A stretch of DNA of 64,000 nt from Thermoanaerobaculia bacterium (GTDB lineage Bacteria > Acidobacteriota > Thermoanaerobaculia > Multivoradales > UBA5704). A program made the translations under genes and the position numbers. Within the stretch, counting starts at the first letter, position 1. Each line of letters opens with the position of its first letter. Under the pieces are notes generated by a model. It made no database searches and was not told the DNA's origin. It saw nothing but the letters and a program-made list of their open reading frames with translations. Shown piece by piece: positions 6,922-18,183 of this stretch. The stretch spans positions 64,001 to 128,000 of the forward strand of contig JBGAGQ010000004.1 of the NCBI GenBank assembly GCA_044226625.1. Direction: 5' to 3'.

Positions 6922-7797
6922 ATGAAGAAGAACTTTCTCATCCTCCCCGCTCTCGCTCTGCTCCCGCTGGCCGTCGTCGCCGGTTGCGGGCGCTCCGAAC
7001 CTCCGGTCGCCCGCCTGCGGGTCGAGCCGGCGACGCTACGCCTCCCGTACCCCGAGCTCGCGTCGGTCAAATTCACCTGGGAACCGATCAGCGCGATCGC
7101 CGCCACGCCCACCGTCTTCGTGCATATCGTCGACGAGAAAGGGGAGATCGAGCGGACGTTCGACCACCCTTACCCCGCCGCGTTCAAGCCCGGCACGCCG
7201 CAGACCTACCCGGTCCACCTCTATCAGACAGCCCTCGCCACCCCCTTGCCGGAAGGCAAGCACCGGCTCGTCGTCGGGCTTTACGCCCCGGGCAGCGACC
7301 GTTGGGCGCTCGAGACGACCGGCAAGGAGCTCAAGAAGAAGGAGTACATCGTCGCCGAGCTCGACGTTCCCAAGGTCGACAAGCTCGCTCCGAAGCTCCA
7401 GTTCACCCGCACCTGGCTCCCCGCCGAGGACGGCGGCGACCGCCAGACCCTGGTGCGGCGCTGGCTGACCGGCAACGGCGCGATCCGTGTGGCGCCGGTG
7501 AACAAGCCCGGAACGCTCTGGCTCTCGGCCCGCATCCCGGCTGGCGACAACCCGGGAGAAAAGCTGGTCCTGAACGGCACTAAACCTCCCTCGGCTCAGA
7601 TCGCGAGCAGCTGCGGCGGTGCCGAGACCAACATCTCGGGCCCCGGCGTCCATCTCGTGCCGATCACGATCGACGCGGTGCCCCCCGGCGGCCAGTGCGT
7701 GATCCGTTTCCGCACCGATTTCCGCCTCGAGGTCACCGGCTCGCCCCACATGCGCTCGGTCGCCCTGGAGAACGCCGCCTGGTCGCCCAAAGGTTGA
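6922..7797 (+). CDS. Hypothetical lipoprotein
   Basis: MKK-hydrophobic-VAGC lipobox; beta-rich mature region. Confidence 0.7.
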   Translation: MKKNFLILPALALLPLAVVAGCGRSEPPVARLRVEPATLRLPYPELASVKFTWEPISAIAATPTVFVHIVDEKGEIERTFDHPYPAAFKPGTPQTYPVHLYQTALATPLPEGKHRLVVGLYAPGSDRWALETTGKELKKKEYIVAELDVPKVDKLAPKLQFTRTWLPAEDGGDRQTLVRRWLTGNGAIRVAPVNKPGTLWLSARIPAGDNPGEKLVLNGTKPPSAQIASSCGGAETNISGPGVHLVPITIDAVPPGGQCVIRFRTDFRLEVTGSPHMRSVALENAAWSPKG

Positions 7798-8643: not shown

Positions 8644-9981
8644 ATGACGACCGAGAACTCCCGCTCCAGGGCTTCCCTCAAGGCTTCGGCCTGGCTCCTC
8701 CTCCTGCTCGCCGCCTCCATGCCGACGACGGCGGCCGAGTCTCCACGGCACGTTTCGGCCCGATCGCTGCTCGCGATCTCCACCCAAGCGATCGTCGCGG
8801 TGCAGCATGCCGCCGCGGCCGACGCGCGCCTCACCGGTACCCCGTCCGCCAGCCCCGCGCGCGTCGCTCCGTTCTGGGCCTCGCTCCAGGGAGCCACACA
8901 GGCGCTCGCAGAGCTCCGGGCGGGGCTGGGCGATCCGGGCGTCCCGCCCGCCGGTGATCTTTTCTCCCGCGTGGCCCGCGCGGGAGGGCGGCTCGCCGAG
9001 CTCTCCGCGGCCTGGAATCGACTGGGCGTACCGAATGCCGGCGTCCAAGCGGGGCTCTCGACGCTTTCGACCTCCTGGACGTTGTTCCGCGGGACCTACG
9101 GTCCGGAAGGGGTTCGCCACCGCCAGGACCGCCCGCTCACAGCCGAGGAGGCTCATCGGCTGGAGGTGGTCCAGCGCGCCCAGGAGCGGCTCGCGGCCCA
9201 GATCCTGCGCTTGGAAGAGCGCGCTCGCCGATCGCGCGAGACCGAAGAGGCGCGCCGTCTCGCGAGGTTCCGCGCGCGGGTCGAAGCGCCCGCGCTCGCG
9301 GCGAGCGATCTCGACGCCTACCTCGCAGCGCTCGCCACGTTGCCGGAGATCGAAGGCGAATGGTCGGCGCTCAAGGCCGCGGCACCCAAGGAGCGGCGCA
9401 TCGCTTACGCCCGGCTGGATCCCATCGTCGAAGAGATCCAAACCGAGGCGGAAATCGGCTCCGTGCAGGTGCTCGACCTCGATCGCGGCAAGGCCTGGAA
9501 GTTCCTCGATCAGACGACCGCGGTTCCCGAGAGCCTCGCCTCCGCGGTCCTCGCCCTGGAAGATCCGACCGCTGACGAGGCCACGGAAGGTGACGAGGAG
9601 GGCGAGTTCGCCGAAGCCATCACGTCGGAAGCCGAGAGCTGGTGTGCCGAGGACGACGAGGAGTGCCTGGCGGCGGAAGAATCCGCAGCAGCCCACGAGG
9701 CCGCGCAAACCCCGATTGCCGAAGGAGCCGAGCAGGCCAGCCCGCTGAAACCGGAGAGCCGCGAAGTGGAGCGCGCCCAGGCCGGAATCGCCGCCGCCTC
9801 GACGCCGGCACCGACCCAGGCTCCCGCGGCGAAGGCGCCGCAATTCCCCGGGCTTTGCGGCGATTCCTCCGCCGATGGCTGCACCGCGGCGCCCGATCCC
9901 GCGGCGCTGTCGGAGACCGCACCGAGCAGCAGCTCTTCTTCTGCGCCCCCAAGGGGAACCTTCGACCCCGCGAAGGGCTGA
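8644..9981 (+). CDS. Hypothetical secreted helical protein with acidic/low-complexity C-terminus
   Basis: Signal peptide (WLLLLLAASMPTTAA), long open frame in gene-dense context; no recognisable motif. Confidence 0.6.
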   Translation: MTTENSRSRASLKASAWLLLLLAASMPTTAAESPRHVSARSLLAISTQAIVAVQHAAAADARLTGTPSASPARVAPFWASLQGATQALAELRAGLGDPGVPPAGDLFSRVARAGGRLAELSAAWNRLGVPNAGVQAGLSTLSTSWTLFRGTYGPEGVRHRQDRPLTAEEAHRLEVVQRAQERLAAQILRLEERARRSRETEEARRLARFRARVEAPALAASDLDAYLAALATLPEIEGEWSALKAAAPKERRIAYARLDPIVEEIQTEAEIGSVQVLDLDRGKAWKFLDQTTAVPESLASAVLALEDPTADEATEGDEEGEFAEAITSEAESWCAEDDEECLAAEESAAAHEAAQTPIAEGAEQASPLKPESREVERAQAGIAAASTPAPTQAPAAKAPQFPGLCGDSSADGCTAAPDPAALSETAPSSSSSSAPPRGTFDPAKG

Positions 9982-10006
9982 CCGCCCCCGCGAGCGAGCC
10001 TTCTCT

Positions 10007-11605
10007 TTGATCTTCTCCAGGCGCCTCTCCAGGAAATCTCCACGATCAGCACGCTGGGCCCAAGCTCGCCGAACCCTTCGGTACGGCGCCCTTTGGGCAA
10101 CCCTCTTCGGAGTGGGGGCGGTGCAGGTCGCCGGGCAGGAGGCGGCTGCGCCGGTCTCCGCGACCGTAGCGGCTGAATCGGTCGGAGCGGTCGGAGCGCC
10201 CGCGTCATTCGACGATTGGATCGTCTACCACGTGACGGTCGAGATGTTCGCCGACAGCAACCGGGCGAACGACGGCGAGATCTCGGGTTGGAAACATCCC
10301 AACTACGCCGGTGGCGACCTCCAGGGCATCCTCGACCACCTCGACCATCTGGAGAAGCTGGGGGTCAACGCGATCTGGCTGTCGCCGGTGTTCGCCGCTC
10401 GCAGCTCGCACGGCTACGACGTCACGAACTACTACCGGATCGGCGACGCGGTGGGCAATCCGGGCAAGCCCGAGGAGTCGCTCGCCCTGTTCCAGAAGCT
10501 GCGGAGCGAGCTGGCCCGGCGCGGCATTCGAACGATCCTCGACATCCCGCTGAACCACGCCGCCGGCACCTACGAGAAACCCGCGGGCGACCCCGACGGC
10601 CTGCGGCCGCGGACCACCGCCGCGCGCCAGGACGCCGAGAAGCTCTGGGACAGCTGGGGCGGCGGCTACCGCTATTGGGACTTCGGGAACGAGCCGACGC
10701 GGCGGTTCCTGAAGAACGTGGCGCTTCACTGGCTGCGCGACGAGGGGGTCGACGGCCTGCGGCTCGACTACGTCCGCGGCGTGCCGCACGACTTCTGGGC
10801 GGAGCTGTACGCGGAGGTCAAGGCGGCCAAACCCGGCGCCCTGCTGCTCGGCGAGTGCTGGCAGGACGAAGGGGGACCGGAAGCCAACGCCCGTGAGATG
10901 GCGACCTACGCCGCGCCGGTCGACGGCAAGCCGCAGTTCGACGCCTTGCTCGACTTTCCGATGCAAGCCGCTCTCACCGCAGCGTTCGCCCGCGGGGGCT
11001 CCGGCAAGGACCTCGAAGCCAGTCTGCAAAGCACCGAGAAGACCGTCGGTCCGGGTGTGGCGCTCGCCCGCTTCCTCGACAACCACGACCTCGCCCGGTT
11101 CATGGCCTGGGCGGATCGGACCGAGCGTCTGACCGCGGCGCTCGGTTTCATGGCGAGCCTGTCCGGACCGGTGGTGATCTACTACGGCACAGAAACCGGG
11201 CTGGCCCACGGCGCCCCGAAACCCGGATTCACCGACGCCGGCCGCATCCCGATGCCGTGGGCCAAGCTCGACGCCGCCCTGGTCGAAAAGACCGCGCGAA
11301 TCTTCACCGCCCGACGCGCCCATCCGGCGCTGATCCACGGCGAACGGCTGCCGCTCCTCGCCGACAAGACAGGCATTGCCTTCGCGAAGCGGACGGCCGA
11401 CGAGACGATCGTCGTCGCCTCGAACCTAGGCACCGCGCCTCGTGAGATCACTTTCGACGCGAAGGGTCTCGCCCCCACCGACTCGACCTTCGAGCCGCTC
11501 TTCGGCGAAGCGAAGCCGAGCTTCGCCACGGCCGAGGGAAACACTCTCCGCTGGACGCTACCGCCCCTGTCGACCACGGCGGTCGTCGTCCGGCCGGCGC
11601 CCTGA
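10007..11605 (+). CDS. Alpha-amylase family glycosyl hydrolase (GH13), secreted
   Basis: GGDLQGI, IWLSPVF, HGYD, catalytic DGLRLD / GECW / DNHD; start uncertain (TTG 10007 chosen). Confidence 0.9.
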   Translation: MIFSRRLSRKSPRSARWAQARRTLRYGALWATLFGVGAVQVAGQEAAAPVSATVAAESVGAVGAPASFDDWIVYHVTVEMFADSNRANDGEISGWKHPNYAGGDLQGILDHLDHLEKLGVNAIWLSPVFAARSSHGYDVTNYYRIGDAVGNPGKPEESLALFQKLRSELARRGIRTILDIPLNHAAGTYEKPAGDPDGLRPRTTAARQDAEKLWDSWGGGYRYWDFGNEPTRRFLKNVALHWLRDEGVDGLRLDYVRGVPHDFWAELYAEVKAAKPGALLLGECWQDEGGPEANAREMATYAAPVDGKPQFDALLDFPMQAALTAAFARGGSGKDLEASLQSTEKTVGPGVALARFLDNHDLARFMAWADRTERLTAALGFMASLSGPVVIYYGTETGLAHGAPKPGFTDAGRIPMPWAKLDAALVEKTARIFTARRAHPALIHGERLPLLADKTGIAFAKRTADETIVVASNLGTAPREITFDAKGLAPTDSTFEPLFGEAKPSFATAEGNTLRWTLPPLSTTAVVVRPAP

Positions 11606-11639
11606 GCCTTCCTTCCGCGCCGGCCCATCGCCGCCAACC

Positions 11640-12539
11640 TCAGACGGCGAGCATCTCCTGGATCCACATCTGCGCGAGCGACGGCGGCGAACCGACGGTC
11701 GCGCGCAGGAGCGTCTTGATCTTCGATTCAAGCGCCGAGGCGATGGCCGCGACGGGCGGGTAGGGCAAGGTGAGGAACGCGAGCCCCGCGCCGGGAAGCG
11801 AGTCCTCGGGACCGTCGACCAGTAACGGCACCAGGTGCGCCGCCCGGCCCGCGAGATCCCAGAACCAGGGACGCGGGGAGAGTCTCTCCCCCGCATCCTC
11901 GACGACGATCAGGGGCCGATGCTCCCGTTCGAGCACACCTCGGACCTCCGTCCGATCCGGAACGTCCAAACCCGAGATCAGCAGGAACGCGGGCTCGCCC
12001 GCGGGAAGCCCCGAGAACGCCCGAGCCAGGGCTTCCGCTTCGAGGGCGACCTCCACAAGCCTCGCTCCGGTATGAAGCCCGAGCGGCTCTTCGAAAGCGC
12101 TCGGCTCGGCTGCCGCGACGAAGGCCGCGCGCCCGGGCACCAGAAACATCTCCGCGAGGCACGAAAGCGCGAGCGTCCGACCCGAGGTCACGATCGGCAG
12201 CGAGGAGAGGATCTCCTCAGGAATGACCAGCCGCTGGCGCGCCCGCCACGCCGCCCGAACCTCAGCGATCCCCTCGACCGGCGAATACAGGAACGAGCGG
12301 TCCCGCGCCTCGTCCGGCAGACCGGAGAGCGCCGCCGCCATCGGTTCGAGCGGCAGCGGGTGGCCATGGCCGTCCGTAATCTGGCCGATCGTTCCGTTGT
12401 ACACGGTCCCACGGGCGTCCGCGGTCTGCTGGGGCAGGAAGTTCGCGGGCTGATAGAGCCGCCGGCCGAGCGGAGAGAGCGCGGCCCAAACGGCGGGCGC
12501 CTCGGCCTGGAGTACGAGATCGGCGGGAGCGGCGCTCAA
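11640..12539 (-). CDS. Degenerate/truncated class I/II aminotransferase-like protein
   Basis: N-terminal half resembles fold-type-I PLP enzymes (NGTIGQITDG, FLYSPVEG, LPIVTSG) but no NP motif, no DxxY, no PLP lysine; only 299 aa. Confidence 0.6.
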   Translation of the reverse strand: MSAAPADLVLQAEAPAVWAALSPLGRRLYQPANFLPQQTADARGTVYNGTIGQITDGHGHPLPLEPMAAALSGLPDEARDRSFLYSPVEGIAEVRAAWRARQRLVIPEEILSSLPIVTSGRTLALSCLAEMFLVPGRAAFVAAAEPSAFEEPLGLHTGARLVEVALEAEALARAFSGLPAGEPAFLLISGLDVPDRTEVRGVLEREHRPLIVVEDAGERLSPRPWFWDLAGRAAHLVPLLVDGPEDSLPGAGLAFLTLPYPPVAAIASALESKIKTLLRATVGSPPSLAQMWIQEMLAV

Positions 12540-14242
12540 AATTCCTCCTCCGCTCCTTTCTGTCGATCTTCAAAGGCGAAATACTGAAGGACGTCTTCCT
12601 CGGTCAAACCCGAAGATCCCAGGAAGCTCGAGCCGGCGCCTTCCTGCGCGGCCGGCGACGGAAACGGTTGCGTCGGATCGGCCGGCGCAGCCGGAGCCGC
12701 CTCTGAGACGGGTGCGACGTGGGCACGACCTCCCGGATCCCCTAGACGCGAGAGCCTGAGTTCCCGGCCGATGCGCGGCTTGACTCTCGCTTCTCCCCCG
12801 ACGAGGCCCTCTACACCGCCGCTCAGGCTCACCTCACTCGCTTCCGCTCGCGACTCGCCGCTTGGATGGAGTTTCAGGCTTACCGGCCGCTCGGCGTCGG
12901 TCGTGACGATCAGTAAGCCCTCCGGGGTCTCGAAATGGATCCTCCTTTCTCCAGCGTCTCCTGACCGGATCGGCCGGATCGCTCCCCGAATCTCGCCCTC
13001 GGCCGATTTCGAGTTGAGGCTTTGGCGGGGCGGCCGGCGAAGTAGCTTCGGCTCCTCCGCGCTCGACGCTTCCGCCGGTAAGCGAAGACGAGCCGTGTTG
13101 GGGAACCGGAAGATCGTCTGGTTCGGCCGGTGTTCCTGCTCGGCCACAGTCACCCCGCCGGGAAATGCGAGCGCATCTTCCCGTCGCACGAGCGGCTTTC
13201 CCAATCTCCCCCGGACCTCCTCCTTGGTCACCTGCGCTCGCCCGAACCCGGCCGCGCCGAATCCCGTTTGTCCCTGCTCCTTGGCATTGGGTCCGATCGG
13301 TCGATAGGTCCGGCGAAAGTTGGGATCGAGAACCGTCTTCGTCGCGCCGCTCCCGATCGCCTCTCGAACGGCAAACCCCTGGCAGGAGTCGCACTGCCGA
13401 AAGCTGTCACCGATCACGGACGATTCGACGAGCCCGGCGGGATCCGCATGCCATTTGGCGCCGATCGTCGAGGGCACGTCCTCGGGAAAAACGTGCCCGA
13501 TCCGCCAAGCTCGGTCGGTTTGGGGTCGATTGGCAGCCGGCTCGAGGCCCGCCTCTCGAAGGATCGAGCTCTGCTCCGCGGTCGCCCCGCCGTATCCGCT
13601 GAGGAAAGCCCGTCGCTCTGCGGTGGCGACGAGCGCGCGCTTTCCGATGTTCGGAATCCGGCTCCGGACGTCGAGCGCCGCGTACGCCTCTTCGGCCGAA
13701 AGGGGCACCAAGGAGCCGGGACCGCCCTCTGTCGAGGACGAAGACGACGAGGCCGGGGAAGGCGAGTCGCTTCCTGGCTCGGGGCTCTTTCGCTTCGGCG
13801 AAACCCCTAGAGAGCTGGGAGTTCGCGCCACATCAGGCGGCAGCAGAGCAGGCGGCCCCACCGGATAGGGCGGCCAAGGCACCGGCGGCAACGTGGACGG
13901 TTGGCTGGAAGACGAAGGGGGGATGCGCGGCGGTGGAGACGAGAGGCCATGGCTCACCGACTGTGAGGCGGGTGATGGAGAAAGGGCGATGGAAACGCCG
14001 GGTGCGCCCGATGGAGCTGAGAGCCTCGGCTTTTTGTTTTTGGCCGGAGTCGCGTCCTCCTCCTCGCCGGGGCCGGCCCGCTGGATCGGCACCGAGGGGA
14101 GCCGCTCGAGCCGATGTCCGAACCCGTTCGTCTCTCGGGCCGCGAGACTCGCCGATCGTCGGTCCGAGCCGGCCAGGCGCGGGCGCGACAGGGGCTCGAC
14201 AGCGGCTGGTATCGCCAGCGGCCGACGCGTGGAGCGAAACAT
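12536..14242 (-). CDS. Putative effector/toxin with zinc deaminase-like domain
   Basis: Leader GHRLERLP..IQR; Pro/Ser-rich linker; WHAD...IGDS.RQCDSCQGF...TVLDP...TYRP core. Confidence 0.55.
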   Translation of the reverse strand: MFRSTRRPLAIPAAVEPLSRPRLAGSDRRSASLAARETNGFGHRLERLPSVPIQRAGPGEEEDATPAKNKKPRLSAPSGAPGVSIALSPSPASQSVSHGLSSPPPRIPPSSSSQPSTLPPVPWPPYPVGPPALLPPDVARTPSSLGVSPKRKSPEPGSDSPSPASSSSSSTEGGPGSLVPLSAEEAYAALDVRSRIPNIGKRALVATAERRAFLSGYGGATAEQSSILREAGLEPAANRPQTDRAWRIGHVFPEDVPSTIGAKWHADPAGLVESSVIGDSFRQCDSCQGFAVREAIGSGATKTVLDPNFRRTYRPIGPNAKEQGQTGFGAAGFGRAQVTKEEVRGRLGKPLVRREDALAFPGGVTVAEQEHRPNQTIFRFPNTARLRLPAEASSAEEPKLLRRPPRQSLNSKSAEGEIRGAIRPIRSGDAGERRIHFETPEGLLIVTTDAERPVSLKLHPSGESRAEASEVSLSGGVEGLVGGEARVKPRIGRELRLSRLGDPGGRAHVAPVSEAAPAAPADPTQPFPSPAAQEGAGSSFLGSSGLTEEDVLQYFAFEDRQKGAEEEF

Positions 14243-14324
14243 GGCGTCCGAATCCTAGCCCGAAACGCGCTCTCGCCCGGCGCCTGGACCGGGTCGCCGC
14301 GCCGCATGGCGCTCGAGAAACGGT

Positions 14325-15872
14325 CTAACCCTCCGGCTCGATCTCGTCCTGCGCCGCCGGCTTCGGCGGCGACGTCGCGGGGGGCGGAGCAGGCAGCACG
14401 GCGGGCCCGAGGCCGGGGGGCCTGCTCCCCGAAGCCGCGGCGAGGAGAGTGGACGCGGGAGGAGGAGGCGGGCCGCCGCGGCCAGTGTAGGCCGCCACCG
14501 AGCTCGACGGCGCCGCGGCGAGGAGCGCGTGCGCGAGAGAGGGGGGCGGCGGAGCGGTGAGGGGCGCCGCCATGCCCGAGACGGTCGAACTGCTCGCCGA
14601 GGCACTTGCCGCGAGGGACACCGCGGCGGCAGTCCCCGAGGCGGCTGCGGCCGCGGCCGCCGCGGGAGGCCTCGGGAGCCGACGAAGGACCCGCGGATGC
14701 GGCGACTGGTCCTTCGCCAGTTTTCTGGTGCGCGGCAGCGCAACGACTTCAGGAGCCTCTCCCCTATCCCGGGCCTCCTGCAACCGCTTGCGTTCGGCGA
14801 CGGTCACCCTGCTCGCCTCGTAGAGGTCGAGGATGTCTTCCTTGCTCACCCCCCCGCGGATCAGAACCTCTTTCGAACGCTTGGCGAAATTCGCCGCGGT
14901 ATCGCCGAGCCCATGAGAGCCCCGCTGCACTTCATCGTTCAAATCCACGACGGCGCCGCTCTCGCGGAGATGCTTCGGGATGCGCACCTTGGCCACCCGA
15001 CGCCCGCCGCGCCCGCTCTCGCTCGCCCAGGCGGCCGTCCTCGACCGGCTGCGGCTGGTGGAAACGAAACCCGATTTGACCTTCGCGCTGGTGCCCGCTC
15101 CGACGTGCTGACTCACGGTGACGTTCGGATCGTGACCGGCCGGAGGCAACAGACCCGTCTCGTACGGGTTTTCCTCCGGGCGCAAGGCTCGAAATACGAC
15201 GTCGGGATCGTCCCGATCGGAGCGGTCCGAATCGCTGTCCGACAGGTGGTGACGACCGGGACGGGGAGCTTTTCGCTTGTTCGGACGGCGGACGGCCGCC
15301 GCGGCGAGCGGAGCTGCCGCGGCCGCGGCGGTGGGAGCCTCGTCGCCGCCCGGAGCGTCGTCATCGTCTTCCGCTGGGGCCGCGGCCGTCGCCGCTCCGG
15401 GGGCCGCGGTCGCCCCGACGTCCGCCCCAAAACCCATCCCCCCTCCTCCACCGCCACCATCCGACCTCGGCCGGTGGGCCGCCAGCGCGAGCCTCAAGGC
15501 ATCGGCCTGTTCGGCCGGAATCAGATCCGGGACGTCGTCGTCGTCTCCGCCCGCCGTGAGGTCCGCCGCGGCCGTCGGCGCGGGAGCCGGTGCGACAGCA
15601 GGCGGGGCAGCCGCGGCAGCCGCGGCGGGCTCGGCCTCGGGGCTTGCGGGGCGGGTCCGCATCCGTCTCCGCTTGCGGACCGGCTTCGGCATGCGCTGCA
15701 CCACATCGGCAGCCTCCGAGGTCGCCGGCAGGCGCTCGAGGGCATGCCCGAGCCGATTCGCCGTTTCGGGTTCGGCGGACCCCGCGGTCGGCGCCGCCGG
15801 ACGGGCCGGCTCTTCTCGCGCCGCGGGAATGGCTCCGTTCGGCGGAGCTGTTCTCAGCGATGACTGGAACAC
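14325..15872 (-). CDS. Putative effector/toxin with ADP-ribosyltransferase-like domain
   Basis: Leader GHALERLP..VVQR; Ala/Asp/Gly-rich linker; VFRAL / FVSTS / KEVL (R-S-E) core. Confidence 0.6.
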   Translation of the reverse strand: MFQSSLRTAPPNGAIPAAREEPARPAAPTAGSAEPETANRLGHALERLPATSEAADVVQRMPKPVRKRRRMRTRPASPEAEPAAAAAAAPPAVAPAPAPTAAADLTAGGDDDDVPDLIPAEQADALRLALAAHRPRSDGGGGGGGMGFGADVGATAAPGAATAAAPAEDDDDAPGGDEAPTAAAAAAPLAAAAVRRPNKRKAPRPGRHHLSDSDSDRSDRDDPDVVFRALRPEENPYETGLLPPAGHDPNVTVSQHVGAGTSAKVKSGFVSTSRSRSRTAAWASESGRGGRRVAKVRIPKHLRESGAVVDLNDEVQRGSHGLGDTAANFAKRSKEVLIRGGVSKEDILDLYEASRVTVAERKRLQEARDRGEAPEVVALPRTRKLAKDQSPHPRVLRRLPRPPAAAAAAAASGTAAAVSLAASASASSSTVSGMAAPLTAPPPPSLAHALLAAAPSSSVAAYTGRGGPPPPPASTLLAAASGSRPPGLGPAVLPAPPPATSPPKPAAQDEIEPEG

Positions 15873-15925
15873 GACAAAGGAAGACTACACCTCTTCGAGG
15901 TGCCGTTTTTCCTCCCGCGTGGCAC

Positions 15926-15934: not shown

Positions 15935-16092
15935 GCGAAAAAGCCCGGACCGCGGCGACTCCGCGGCTCCGGTCGGCCGTTTGAAACGATCTCGAGCCAA
16001 GCGGTACCTTCGTCCGCCGCACGAGCCGAGACCGTGACCTTCGAGCCGGCCTCAATCGAAACCCAATCCAGATGGAGGTAGAGGAGGACCGT

Positions 16093-18183
16093 ATGGCTGC
16101 CGCTGTCGAGACCCATCAGTTCCAGGCCGAGACCAAGAAGCTGCTCGACCTGATGATCCATTCGCTGTATTCGAACAAAGAGATCTTCCTGCGCGAGTTG
16201 ATCTCGAATGCCTCCGACGCGCTCGATCGGCTCCGCTTCGAAGCGCTCACCCGCCCCGAGCTCCTGGGCGAGGAGAAGCTCGAGATCCGCCTCGACACGA
16301 ACAAGGAGCCGCGCACCCTCACCATTTCCGACAACGGCATCGGCATGAACCGAGACGAGGTGATCGCCAACATCGGCACGATCGCCAAGTCCGGCACCCG
16401 CGAGATGGTCGAACGGATGGAGGGCGCGGAGTCCAAGCAGGCGATCGCCGAGATGATCGGCCAGTTCGGCGTCGGCTTCTACTCGTCGTTCATGGCCGCC
16501 GACAAAGTCGTCCTGGTCACCCGTCGCGCGGGCGAGGACAAGGCCTGGCGCTGGGAGTCGACCGGCGATGGCACCTACCAGATCGAAGAGGCCGAGCGGA
16601 GCGGACACGGCACCTCGATCACCCTCTATCTAAAGCCCGAGGACAAGGAGAACGGTCTCGACGACTTCGCCGAGCGTTGGGCGATCCAGCGGGTGGTCCG
16701 CCGCTACTCCGATTTCGTCACCTATCCGATCGTCCTCAAGGCCGAGAACGACGAGGACCTCGACAAGAAGGTGATGGGCGAGGACGTCCAGGTCCGGGTC
16801 GAGGACAAGGTCCTCAACTCGATGAAGCCGATCTGGACCCGGCCGCAGTCGGAGGTCACCGCCGACGAATACAAGGATTTCTTCCGCCACATCGCGCACG
16901 ACTGGAACGAGCCGCTCAAGGTGCTCTCGTTCAAGGCCGAGGGGCGGATCGAATACCAGGCCCTCCTGTTCATTCCGTCGGAGGCGCCGTACGACCTCTA
17001 CTACGTCGCCTCGAAGCCCGCCCTCCAGCTCTACGTCAAGCGCATCCAGATCATGGAGAAGTGCGAGGACCTGCTGCCGCAGTACCTCCGCTTCGTCCGC
17101 GGTGTGGTCGACTCGCCCGACCTGCAGCTCAACGTCTCGCGCGAAATGCTGCAGCAGGACCGCCACATCGCGCAGATGAAAAAGTGGCTGACCAAGAAGC
17201 TGCTCGAGTCGTTCGAGGAGATGAAGAAGGGCGAGGAGGAAACGTACCTCAAGTTCTGGAAGCAGTTCGGCCGCTGCCTGAAGGAAGGGACCAGCTCGGA
17301 CTATGAGAACAAAGAGAAGCTGATCGAGCTGCTGGTCTTCGAGTCGTCCGCCGACAAGGAGAAGCTCACCTCGTTCGCCGACTACGTCTCCCGCATGCAG
17401 GAGGGGCAGACCGAGATCTTCTACCTGACCGGCGAGTCGCGTGAAGTGGTCGAGAACTCACCCCATCTCGAGGCGTTCAAGGCGAAGGGCATCGAGGTCC
17501 TGTACCTCACCGACACGGTCGACGAGTTGCTGGTCCAGTCGCTCCACGAGGTCCAGGGCAAGAAACTCAAGTCGGTCGAGAAGGGCACCGTCAAGCTGGG
17601 CAACGAGGACGAGCAGAAGAAGATCGAGGCGGAGCTCAAGGAGAAGGAGGAGCACCTTCGCCCGTTCCTCGACCATCTCCAGAAGCTGCTCGACACCCAC
17701 GTCAAGCAGGTCCGCCTGACCAACCGGCTGACCGCTTCGCCGGTTTGCCTGGTCGGCGCCGAGCACGACTACAGCCCGCAGCTCGAGCGGTTGCTCCAGA
17801 AGGGCAAGGGGGGCGGCCCGGCGCAGCGCCGGATCGTCGAGCTCAATCCGAGCCACCCCATCCTCACTCGCCTGCACGGCCTCTGGCACGCCGATCCAAA
17901 GGATCCGCGGATCGAGGATTACGCCCAGATGTTGCTCGGCTACGGCCTGCTCGCCGAGAGCGCCGAGATCCCCGACGTCGTCCGCTTCAACCGCGCGGTC
18001 GCCGACCTGATGACCCGCGGCGTCGCCGACGCGCCGCCCGCCCCCGAACCGGCGCCGAAGCCCGAGGCCGTGGCGGAAGAAGGGAAAGCGGAGCCGGTGG
18101 AGGTCAAGCCGTCCAACGTGGTGATCGAGGTGCCGAAGGCCGAAGCCGCCGCCGAGGCCCCGGTCGCCGACTCGAAGGAGTAG
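16093..18183 (+). CDS. htpG: Molecular chaperone HtpG (Hsp90)
   Basis: HSLYSNKEIFLRELISNASDA, DNGIGM, IGQFGVGFYS, LNVSRE; GAGGAGG RBS before ATG 16093. Confidence 0.98.
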   Translation: MAAAVETHQFQAETKKLLDLMIHSLYSNKEIFLRELISNASDALDRLRFEALTRPELLGEEKLEIRLDTNKEPRTLTISDNGIGMNRDEVIANIGTIAKSGTREMVERMEGAESKQAIAEMIGQFGVGFYSSFMAADKVVLVTRRAGEDKAWRWESTGDGTYQIEEAERSGHGTSITLYLKPEDKENGLDDFAERWAIQRVVRRYSDFVTYPIVLKAENDEDLDKKVMGEDVQVRVEDKVLNSMKPIWTRPQSEVTADEYKDFFRHIAHDWNEPLKVLSFKAEGRIEYQALLFIPSEAPYDLYYVASKPALQLYVKRIQIMEKCEDLLPQYLRFVRGVVDSPDLQLNVSREMLQQDRHIAQMKKWLTKKLLESFEEMKKGEEETYLKFWKQFGRCLKEGTSSDYENKEKLIELLVFESSADKEKLTSFADYVSRMQEGQTEIFYLTGESREVVENSPHLEAFKAKGIEVLYLTDTVDELLVQSLHEVQGKKLKSVEKGTVKLGNEDEQKKIEAELKEKEEHLRPFLDHLQKLLDTHVKQVRLTNRLTASPVCLVGAEHDYSPQLERLLQKGKGGGPAQRRIVELNPSHPILTRLHGLWHADPKDPRIEDYAQMLLGYGLLAESAEIPDVVRFNRAVADLMTRGVADAPPAPEPAPKPEAVAEEGKAEPVEVKPSNVVIEVPKAEAAAEAPVADSKE

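Follow-up and report, generated by a model that had tools for sequence, protein, structure and literature searches.

The window analysed here, a stretch of 64,000 nucleotides, is positions 64001-128000 of contig C84 in the genome of a bacterium of the Thermoanaerobaculia, a class within the Acidobacteriota (hereafter G000; a 6.6 Mb assembly of 133 contigs, 97.9% complete). On its minus strand lie two adjacent genes, encoding proteins P0001 and P0002, which share a short N-terminal motif, the leader, and are the probable cargo of an extracellular contractile injection system (eCIS) encoded on another contig, C53. The pair is laid out as follows (ORF, open reading frame; aa, amino acids):

12536-14242, minus strand: P0001, 568 aa, ATG start; leader, Pro/Ser-rich linker, conserved core, acidic tail
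14078-14134, minus strand: P0001 leader motif, residues 37-55, ETNGFGHRLERLPSVPIQR; matches the leader profile within the genome
14243-14324: intergenic gap of exactly 82 bp, too small for any ORF
14325-15872, minus strand: P0002, 515 aa, GTG start; leader, basic cluster, Ala/Asp/Gly-rich linker, core, Ala/Pro-rich tail
15693-15767, minus strand: P0002 leader motif, residues 36-60, ETANRLGHALERLPATSEAADVVQR; one of the profile seeds

BLASTP aligns P0001 and P0002 over residues 10-51 and 14-51 only, at 47% identity (E = 0.037), and outside this N-terminal stretch the two are unrelated. A preliminary description of this DNA had presented them as co-oriented genes with a common N-terminal motif and otherwise unrelated sequences, with no immunity ORF in the gap, no Sec or Tat signal, and with long linkers and low-complexity tails. 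All of this holds. No immunity-like ORF accompanies the pair, and the translations display the low-complexity tails and long linkers rich in Pro, Ser and Ala. The highest 15-residue Kyte-Doolittle mean of the N-terminal region is 0.49 in P0001 and 0.34 in P0002, and by this hydropathy measure neither N-terminus contains a hydrophobic segment of the Sec/Tat type. Searches of both proteins against NCBIfam, PADLOC and PHROGs returned zero matches, and Pfam returned nothing significant, the sole weak match being DUF7587 on P0002. PF13699 (eCIS_core, DUF4157) matched neither protein even at E<=10, and neither has an HExxH domain, which places both outside the DUF4157 toxin family. Across the whole of G000, PF13699 matches were confined to C53 and C16.

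The leader family and the injection machine

The leader has the consensus sLExAxR[LF]GH[RD][LF]ExL, followed after a spacer of 2-30 residues by [AP]PIQR, with G, H and Q invariant. Scanned with a regular expression, the six-frame ORFs of the entire assembly showed the same motif on C53 and C100 as well. One copy from each of these contigs and the two window copies were used as the four seeds of a profile, which, searched against the 66,380 six-frame ORFs of the genome, recovered eight new ORFs (E 4.7e-8 to 1.6e-3). The refined profile identifies 16 leader-bearing ORFs in G000; the next matches come only at E>=0.04, and include fragments on C16, C103 and C20. All 16 carriers have the motif's G-H at a distance of 24-81 residues from the first possible start, and 15 of the 16 are encoded off C53. 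Among the 16 copies the invariant Gly is written GGC (5), GGG (5), GGT (4) or GGA (2) and the invariant His CAT (11) or CAC (5); since these codons vary, what is conserved is the protein sequence, and the leader is no DNA repeat. The similarity between the leaders of P0001 and P0002 thus reflects a real family and not chance.

The only eCIS reported for G000 is a complete operon on the minus strand of C53, at ~9-38 kb. Its genes are, in order:

two sheath genes (Phage_sheath_1/1C), a gp19 tube gene (Phage_T4_gp19) and a T4_baseplate-like gene
a 1654-aa ORF without family, Pvc16_N, a 681-aa AAA+ ATPase and a 135-aa ORF
eCIS_core (DUF4157), CIS_tube, a 396-aa ORF, a Phage_base_V spike, gp25 (GPW_gp25) and Baseplate_J
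a 1386-aa ORF, a Tail_P2_I-like gene and a fibre-like gene with DUF6519 and Laminin_G_3

The AAA+ ATPase is Pvc15-like and its GTG start overlaps the Pvc16 stop. The eCIS_core protein of the operon (216 aa) itself bears the leader (...LETAERLGHDFARLPPVQR...) ahead of its HExxH domain, and has no toxin domain. C16 encodes a second DUF4157 protein, a toxin whose leader, SLGHRFEER, is partial. This locus (C16:28000-45000) holds two copies of the DUF4157 toxin with 'GPLDLLGPANPRLYLPTRLGGHS' repeats, one at C16:37734-39548 and one at ~34.1-35.5 kb, the upstream copy being broken across three reading frames. The 1654-aa ORF (C53:27776-32740, minus strand; positions 8776-13740 of the extracted locus L008) has no Pfam family and an atypical pattern of GC by codon position; by its place in the operon it may be a length-determining or tape-measure-like protein.

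From the sequences and their comparison, we consider it likely that the C53 eCIS carries P0001 and P0002 as cargo effectors, which are probably toxins, and that the motif they share is the lineage-specific loading leader of this system. The hydrophilic N-terminus of ~60-80 residues would be bound by the Pvc15-like AAA+ ATPase or by a partner of the ATPase; the bound cargo protein would then be unfolded, its chain fed into the lumen of the tube, and the cargo delivered on sheath contraction. The stand-alone leader-DUF4157 protein of the operon would presumably be co-loaded. We infer that the ATPase recognises the leader and that the proteins are loaded, injected and toxic, the recognition and threading from the precedent of the Photorhabdus virulence cassettes (PVC) and AlgoCIS. 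A complex prediction for the ATPase (681 aa, 13-row alignment) and the leader (35 aa, 24-row alignment) gave 0.01 in both runs against a mark of 0.32, and is uninformative either way. The preliminary description had expected the leader to have many matches, to stand at the N-terminus in every case, ahead of diverse toxin domains, to co-occur with eCIS loci and to be used without a DUF4157 domain, and the genome bears it out on each count, the leader not being confined to the window pair. It had also left the delivery system as either undescribed or of eCIS type; the latter stands and the former falls, as the system is an ordinary eCIS.

Distribution of the leader

We examined 40 relatives together with G000, of which 23 of the 41 contain Pvc16_N and 26 of the 41 eCIS_core. 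Four congeners, G002, G003, G005 and G006, contain 7, 5, 7 and 8 leader matches, respectively, and have an eCIS ATPase 73-86% identical to that of G000. The remaining 36 of the 40 relatives have at most one leader match each. Half of these (18) have an eCIS ATPase that is less similar (<=62% identity), together with no leader match or one marginal match, G001 excepted. The single matches comprise a strong one in G001 (E=1e-10) and eight marginal ones (E 0.005-0.01). The leader is therefore co-distributed with one ATPase lineage. Moreover, in G003, G005 and G006 the ATPase gene is followed by the leader-DUF4157 gene in the same order as in G000, and the leader immediately precedes the DUF4157 domain. 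In the congeners G001 and G004, whose ATPase belongs to another lineage, DUF4157 is preceded instead by a Cys-rich N-terminus, 'LQRKCACGQH...LQR'. Within a single genus, two types of leader thus segregate with two lineages of loader, which suggests that the leaders act as orthogonal address tags; if true, such tags would be of use in the engineering of eCIS delivery vehicles. Other eCIS lineages of the same order have 'LQRKCACGQH..C.EC..K...LQR' upstream of DUF4157.

In a relative of another genus (G024:C25:7257-11602) a DUF4157 match is followed, ~130 bp downstream, by one of the marginal leader matches (E=0.007, at 7581-7640), with ATPase and Pvc16_N matches a few kb away. Given this proximity, some of the marginal matches may be real, diverged leaders.

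A profile of 24 leaders was searched against 1,835,955,588 representative proteins world-wide (E<=0.001), yielding 35 matches, eight of which are G000's own proteins. Two of the 35, P0025 and P0036, were judged false by inspection, their matches lying in internal repeats. In 32 of the remaining 33 proteins the best match begins at residues 3-64; the other, the DUF4157 protein P0033, has two leader copies, of which the best-matching starts at residue 126 and the other lies upstream. Among leader proteins that come from other sources, 28 were analysed with Pfam (25 of the 35, together with P0003, P0006 and P0007), giving Peptidase_M91 in three, DUF7587 in two, and eCIS_core, DUF6310 and C26/GATase in one each. 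The closest named records to the C53 eCIS_core protein come from Thermoanaerobaculia bins (74-80% identity), and these relatives retain LE[KR]A[ET]RLGHDF[AS]RLP.

Several observations weigh against P0001 and P0002 being cargo of the C53 eCIS. The pair lies away from the operon, at 76.5-79.9 kb of the 202-kb contig C84, and in one curated training set 88% of eCIS toxins are within ten genes of the operon (PMC11297309), as the window genes are not. Their leaders are among the most divergent copies, P0001 having G in place of R before FGH. In the world-wide search P0001 obtained a low score (35.8 bits, E=4.3e-4, residues 25-57) and P0002 is absent from the 35 matches. The co-distribution with one ATPase lineage comes from five related, non-independent genomes, a small sample, and G001 combines its strong leader match with no Pvc16_N match and an ATPase present only as a 145-residue fragment (61% identity). 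Lastly, the structure models of both cores are of low confidence, and 'toxin' is thus a label drawn from weak leads.

Putative effector domains and the window locus

The C-terminal regions of the 16 carriers in G000 are mutually unrelated. Three of the 16 reach a Pfam cut-off, with HNH (30.7 bits), eCIS_core and Peptidase_M91, and three further carriers have sub-threshold matches (M91 twice, DUF7587 once); the remaining carriers are without family. The carriers include a paralogue pair with glycine-rich transmembrane C-termini, a second paralogue pair with an H-S-E ... C-x-x-C signature, and one further transmembrane protein. In the congener G006, one protein (L042; C80, ORF 1378-2901) consists of leader, DUF4157 and toxin domain, and in G000 the same toxin domain directly follows the leader, with no DUF4157 (L013; C81:120714-121961). 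DUF4157 is therefore an optional module between leader and toxin, and the two genes are a natural instance of its gain or loss.

Basic clusters resembling nuclear localisation signals, defined as K[KR]x[KR] or at least four consecutive K/R, are found in 11 of the 16 leader proteins and in 553 of 2267 proxy background genes, at densities of 0.33 and 0.05 per 100 residues, respectively. Examples in the window are:

15663-15677: basic cluster
15261-15281: basic cluster
14024-14035: basic cluster

Many leader proteins also have acidic, Ser-rich or Lys-rich tails. These sequence features are hints of eukaryotic or nucleic-acid targets. One carrier appears to be split: a 225-aa leader protein (L012) and an adjacent 265-aa ORF at C14:26837-28312 correspond to a single 491-aa ORF in G006 (L028, C5), which points to a stop or frameshift in G000, either a pseudogene or an assembly error.

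The preliminary description had called the cores of the window proteins deaminase-like (P0001) and ADP-ribosyltransferase-like (P0002). These labels hold in part only: the second keeps a sub-threshold lead, to DUF7587, and the first a weak lead with no family match, while neither core has a significant fold match. The elements of the P0002 core are:

14658-15260, minus strand: candidate ADP-ribosyltransferase core, residues 205-405
15177-15200, minus strand: F-R-x-L-R, conserved in three of three sequences
15048-15068, minus strand: V-S-x-[ST]-R-S, conserved in three of three sequences
14853-14876, minus strand: E-V-L, conserved in three of three sequences

Two homologues of P0002 were found, with core identities of 46% and 53%, and both carry leader variants (DRFGHHLSRISI...VVQR in P0006, RFGHSLERLA...PIQL in P0007). 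ADP-ribosyltransferases of the R-S-E type combine the ART fold with three motifs, built around an Arg, an S-T-S and a catalytic Glu. DUF7587 matches P0002 at residues 247-349 with 18.2 bits (E=0.0029), below the cut-off of 27, and P0006 with 26.3 bits, just under it. The language-model neighbours of P0002 (0.91-0.94) are clusters annotated DUF7587, Scabin-like, Pertussis_S1, NarE and Tse2-ART, the best match sharing 168 features, below the 170-feature guide. Given the near-threshold DUF7587 match and these neighbours, it is plausible but unproven that the P0002 core is an ADP-ribosyltransferase. An AlphaFold2 model of the core is of low confidence (pLDDT 45.7), and Foldseek found no PDB match for it at E<=0.001; the top row, a pertussis-like toxin A subunit, has E=0.82 and is not significant.

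For P0001 the corresponding elements are:

12728-13711, minus strand: conserved core, residues 178-505
13439-13453, minus strand: W-H-A/S-D-P, residues 264-268, invariant in the family alignment
13376-13393, minus strand: C-x-S-C-Q-G, residues 284-289, invariant in the family alignment
12566-12610, minus strand: C-terminal motif of the family, GLTEEDVLQYFAFED; GLTEE-VLQ-[YF]FAF-D

We identified three homologues of P0001 among 5.8 billion clusters, with core identities of 54-64%. P0003, the only one with a full N-terminus, carries the leader (it starts MGNL...KLGHALERLAVAPIQR). The C-terminal motif, which sits after the low-complexity tail and is kept in P0003, P0004 and partly P0005, looks like a short linear motif. 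Deaminases of the cytidine deaminase fold have the zinc-binding and catalytic signature H/C-x-E ... P-C-x-x-C. The P0001 family has H-[AS]-D-P ... C-x-S-C, with Asp in place of the expected catalytic Glu, and a divergent deaminase-like zinc site formed by W-H-A/S-D-P and C-x-S-C-Q-G is possible. The language-model neighbours of the core are toxin-deaminase clusters with weak scores (0.76-0.81), and neither Pfam nor NCBIfam matches it, leaving kinship with deaminases a weak lead. The AlphaFold2 model of this core is likewise of low confidence (pLDDT 51.3) with no Foldseek match in the PDB at E<=0.001, and profile searches of the P0001 and P0002 families against the sequences of solved structures gave nothing below E=0.9.

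The pair sits between two conserved genes:

11640-12539, minus strand: orf299, flanking conserved gene, TTG start, 4-bp overlap with the P0001 stop
12540-15900: effector-pair insertion, ~3.4-3.5 kb, containing both effector genes; right boundary approximate
16072-18183, plus strand: htpG (Hsp90), flanking housekeeping gene (Pfam HSP90, E=1.6e-134)

In the congeners G001-G004, htpG and the orf299 homologue are divergent and ~100-270 bp apart, compared with 3533 bp in G000, and the gene pair is therefore an insertion. No homologue of P0001 or P0002 was found in the 20 relatives searched. The GC content at third codon positions is 0.73 in P0001 and 0.79 in P0002, and 0.84-0.92 in the flanking genes. 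The insertion has no clear boundary repeats; the sole alignment, a weak one of 17 bases (E=0.012), is between the ribosome-binding-site/start region of htpG and the intergenic DNA of the congeners. We considered orf299 as an immunity gene and rejected this, as it is a core gene, with homologues 71-75% identical in all seven congeners, and adjoins htpG there without effectors. Its candidacy as an aminotransferase likewise has no Pfam support, orf299 matching no Pfam family.

Alternative readings and known systems

A more elaborate reading makes the leader bipartite, the lineage address LExAxR[LF]GHxFExL serving the AAA+ loader and [IVL]Q[RK] being a near-universal site cut in trans by the co-packaged, stand-alone DUF4157 peptidase. 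We hold this to be unlikely. If true, it would explain why DUF4157 is a 'core' eCIS gene, with cutting inside the particle or the target, and one protease of the operon would mature at least 15 dispersed effectors that have shed their own DUF4157.

That the leader is chiefly a processing site, with the zinc peptidase DUF4157 cleaving [AP]PIQR in cis in fused proteins and, through the operon's stand-alone leader-DUF4157 protein, in trans in the others, so that the toxin is released or activated, we judge rather unlikely; as a second function it would be compatible with a loading leader. The DUF4157 domain, as 'PVC-metallopeptidase', was once proposed to be an autoproteolytic peptidase releasing such toxins (PMC3482391, 2012), and the operon's DUF4157 protein bears the leader yet has no toxin domain. 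In addition, within 100 residues upstream of DUF4157 at 27 other loci (L055-L066 and L070-L085 minus L083) there are 35 [IVL]Q[RK] tripeptides against 5.3 expected from shuffles, a 6.6-fold excess present at 19 of the 27. However, a three-residue motif is weak evidence, the 27 loci are non-independent, several coming from the same metagenome-assembled genomes, and the 100 residues downstream contain 16 such tripeptides, the shuffle expectation having been computed for the upstream side only. Moreover, we found no report of cleavage by a DUF4157 protein in the literature cited here, and DUF4157 is described as dispensable for AlgoCIS loading, its role being left open (bioRxiv 10.64898/2026.05.27.728243). 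The upstream tripeptides occur, for example, in Bacteroidota bins as PIQ[RA]K repeats and in an archaeal bin within VLQRQ; in Nostoc only a related GFNFAQIPI...LQPKL stands there.

Alternatively, the leader could belong to a contractile system working within the producing cell or remaining membrane-bound, as with the cytoplasmic systems of the Streptomyces type, which mediate cell death or differentiation, or to another export route, with no injection into foreign cells. Cytoplasmic contractile systems with effectors of their own have been published (PMC11126660), and the ORF listing shows no evident, shared immunity gene adjoining any of the 15 leader genes checked. Missing immunity genes are, however, described as typical of PVC-type toxins directed against distant organisms (PMC3482391), and the terminal fibre-like gene of the operon, with DUF6519 and the lectin-type domain Laminin_G_3, fits binding of an outside target. 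As for other export, no further candidate secretion system is linked to the leader, and TssC/VipB (PF05943), the sheath of the T6SS (type VI secretion system), has no match in the G000 assembly. We regard this alternative as quite improbable. A functionless chance or compositional likeness of two low-complexity N-termini is exceedingly improbable: the pairwise E value is marginal and Ala, Pro, Arg and Ser abound in this stretch, but four seeds recovered eight further matches within the genome, G-H and Q are invariant in the protein while codons vary, and the leader keeps its N-terminal position world-wide and is retained in homologues of both window genes.

A loading leader on cargo of the C53 eCIS has its closest precedents in PVC and AlgoCIS. 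The cargo signals of PVC/Afp (on Pnf, Pdp1 and others), which the AAA+ ATPase Pvc15 selects, are likewise hydrophilic N-terminal leaders of ~50-70 residues on unrelated effectors without DUF4157, with a Pvc15-type ATPase in the operon, and are described as disordered and grouped by sequence within a lineage (PMC11495950). Here the phylum and eCIS lineage are different, there is no detectable sequence relation, and the core is sharply conserved (invariant G-H and Q); moreover, 15 of the 16 carriers are off the operon contig, whereas PVC cargo lies directly downstream of the operon. The AlgoCIS proteins Cgo1 and Cgo2, with an N-terminal domain, DUF4157 and a variable C-terminus, have the module order of the C53 eCIS_core protein, the C16 toxin and L042 of G006. 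Their disordered N-terminal domain is reported to be required for loading via the AAA+ protein Alg15, DUF4157 not being needed, and such domains to be alike within one system and not between systems (bioRxiv 10.64898/2026.05.27.728243). There, two cargos lie beside the operon; here, 16 carriers, mostly without DUF4157, are scattered, a comparison made by description.

The polymorphic toxins with DUF4157 (PVC-metallopeptidase), linked to eCIS in many phyla, share with the present proteins a constant N-terminal module and variable C-terminal toxins, many without immunity genes (PMC3482391; PMC8213781). In our case the constant module is a short leader upstream of where DUF4157 would sit. The MIX, FIX and RIX markers of T6SS effectors similarly reveal dispersed polymorphic effectors genome-wide (PMC10435454), but they are folded domains of another secretion system, whose TssC was not found here. 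We found no description of the leader motif in PMC8213781, PMC11297309, PMC3482391, PMC11495950 and bioRxiv 10.64898/2026.05.27.728243, supplementary toxin lists aside, nor in the literature on DUF4157, PVC-metallopeptidase and eCIS loading; searches on contractile injection in Thermoanaerobaculia and on DUF7587 returned nothing.

In the published descriptions cited here, eCIS loading signals are disordered and unconserved in sequence, and their recognition depends for the most part on physico-chemical scores and on how close the gene lies to the operon. In the lineage described here, the entire putative cargo set of the eCIS bears one short motif with invariant residues. This motif reveals 15 putative effectors beyond the reach of neighbourhood-based methods, most of them without family and thus a pool of new toxin folds, and its G-H and Q-R offer precise residues for asking how an AAA+ loader selects its cargo and what DUF4157 does. 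The loading principle itself is already known experimentally from PVC and AlgoCIS; the novelty lies in the lineage, in how sharply the motif is conserved, and in how large and dispersed a repertoire it reveals.

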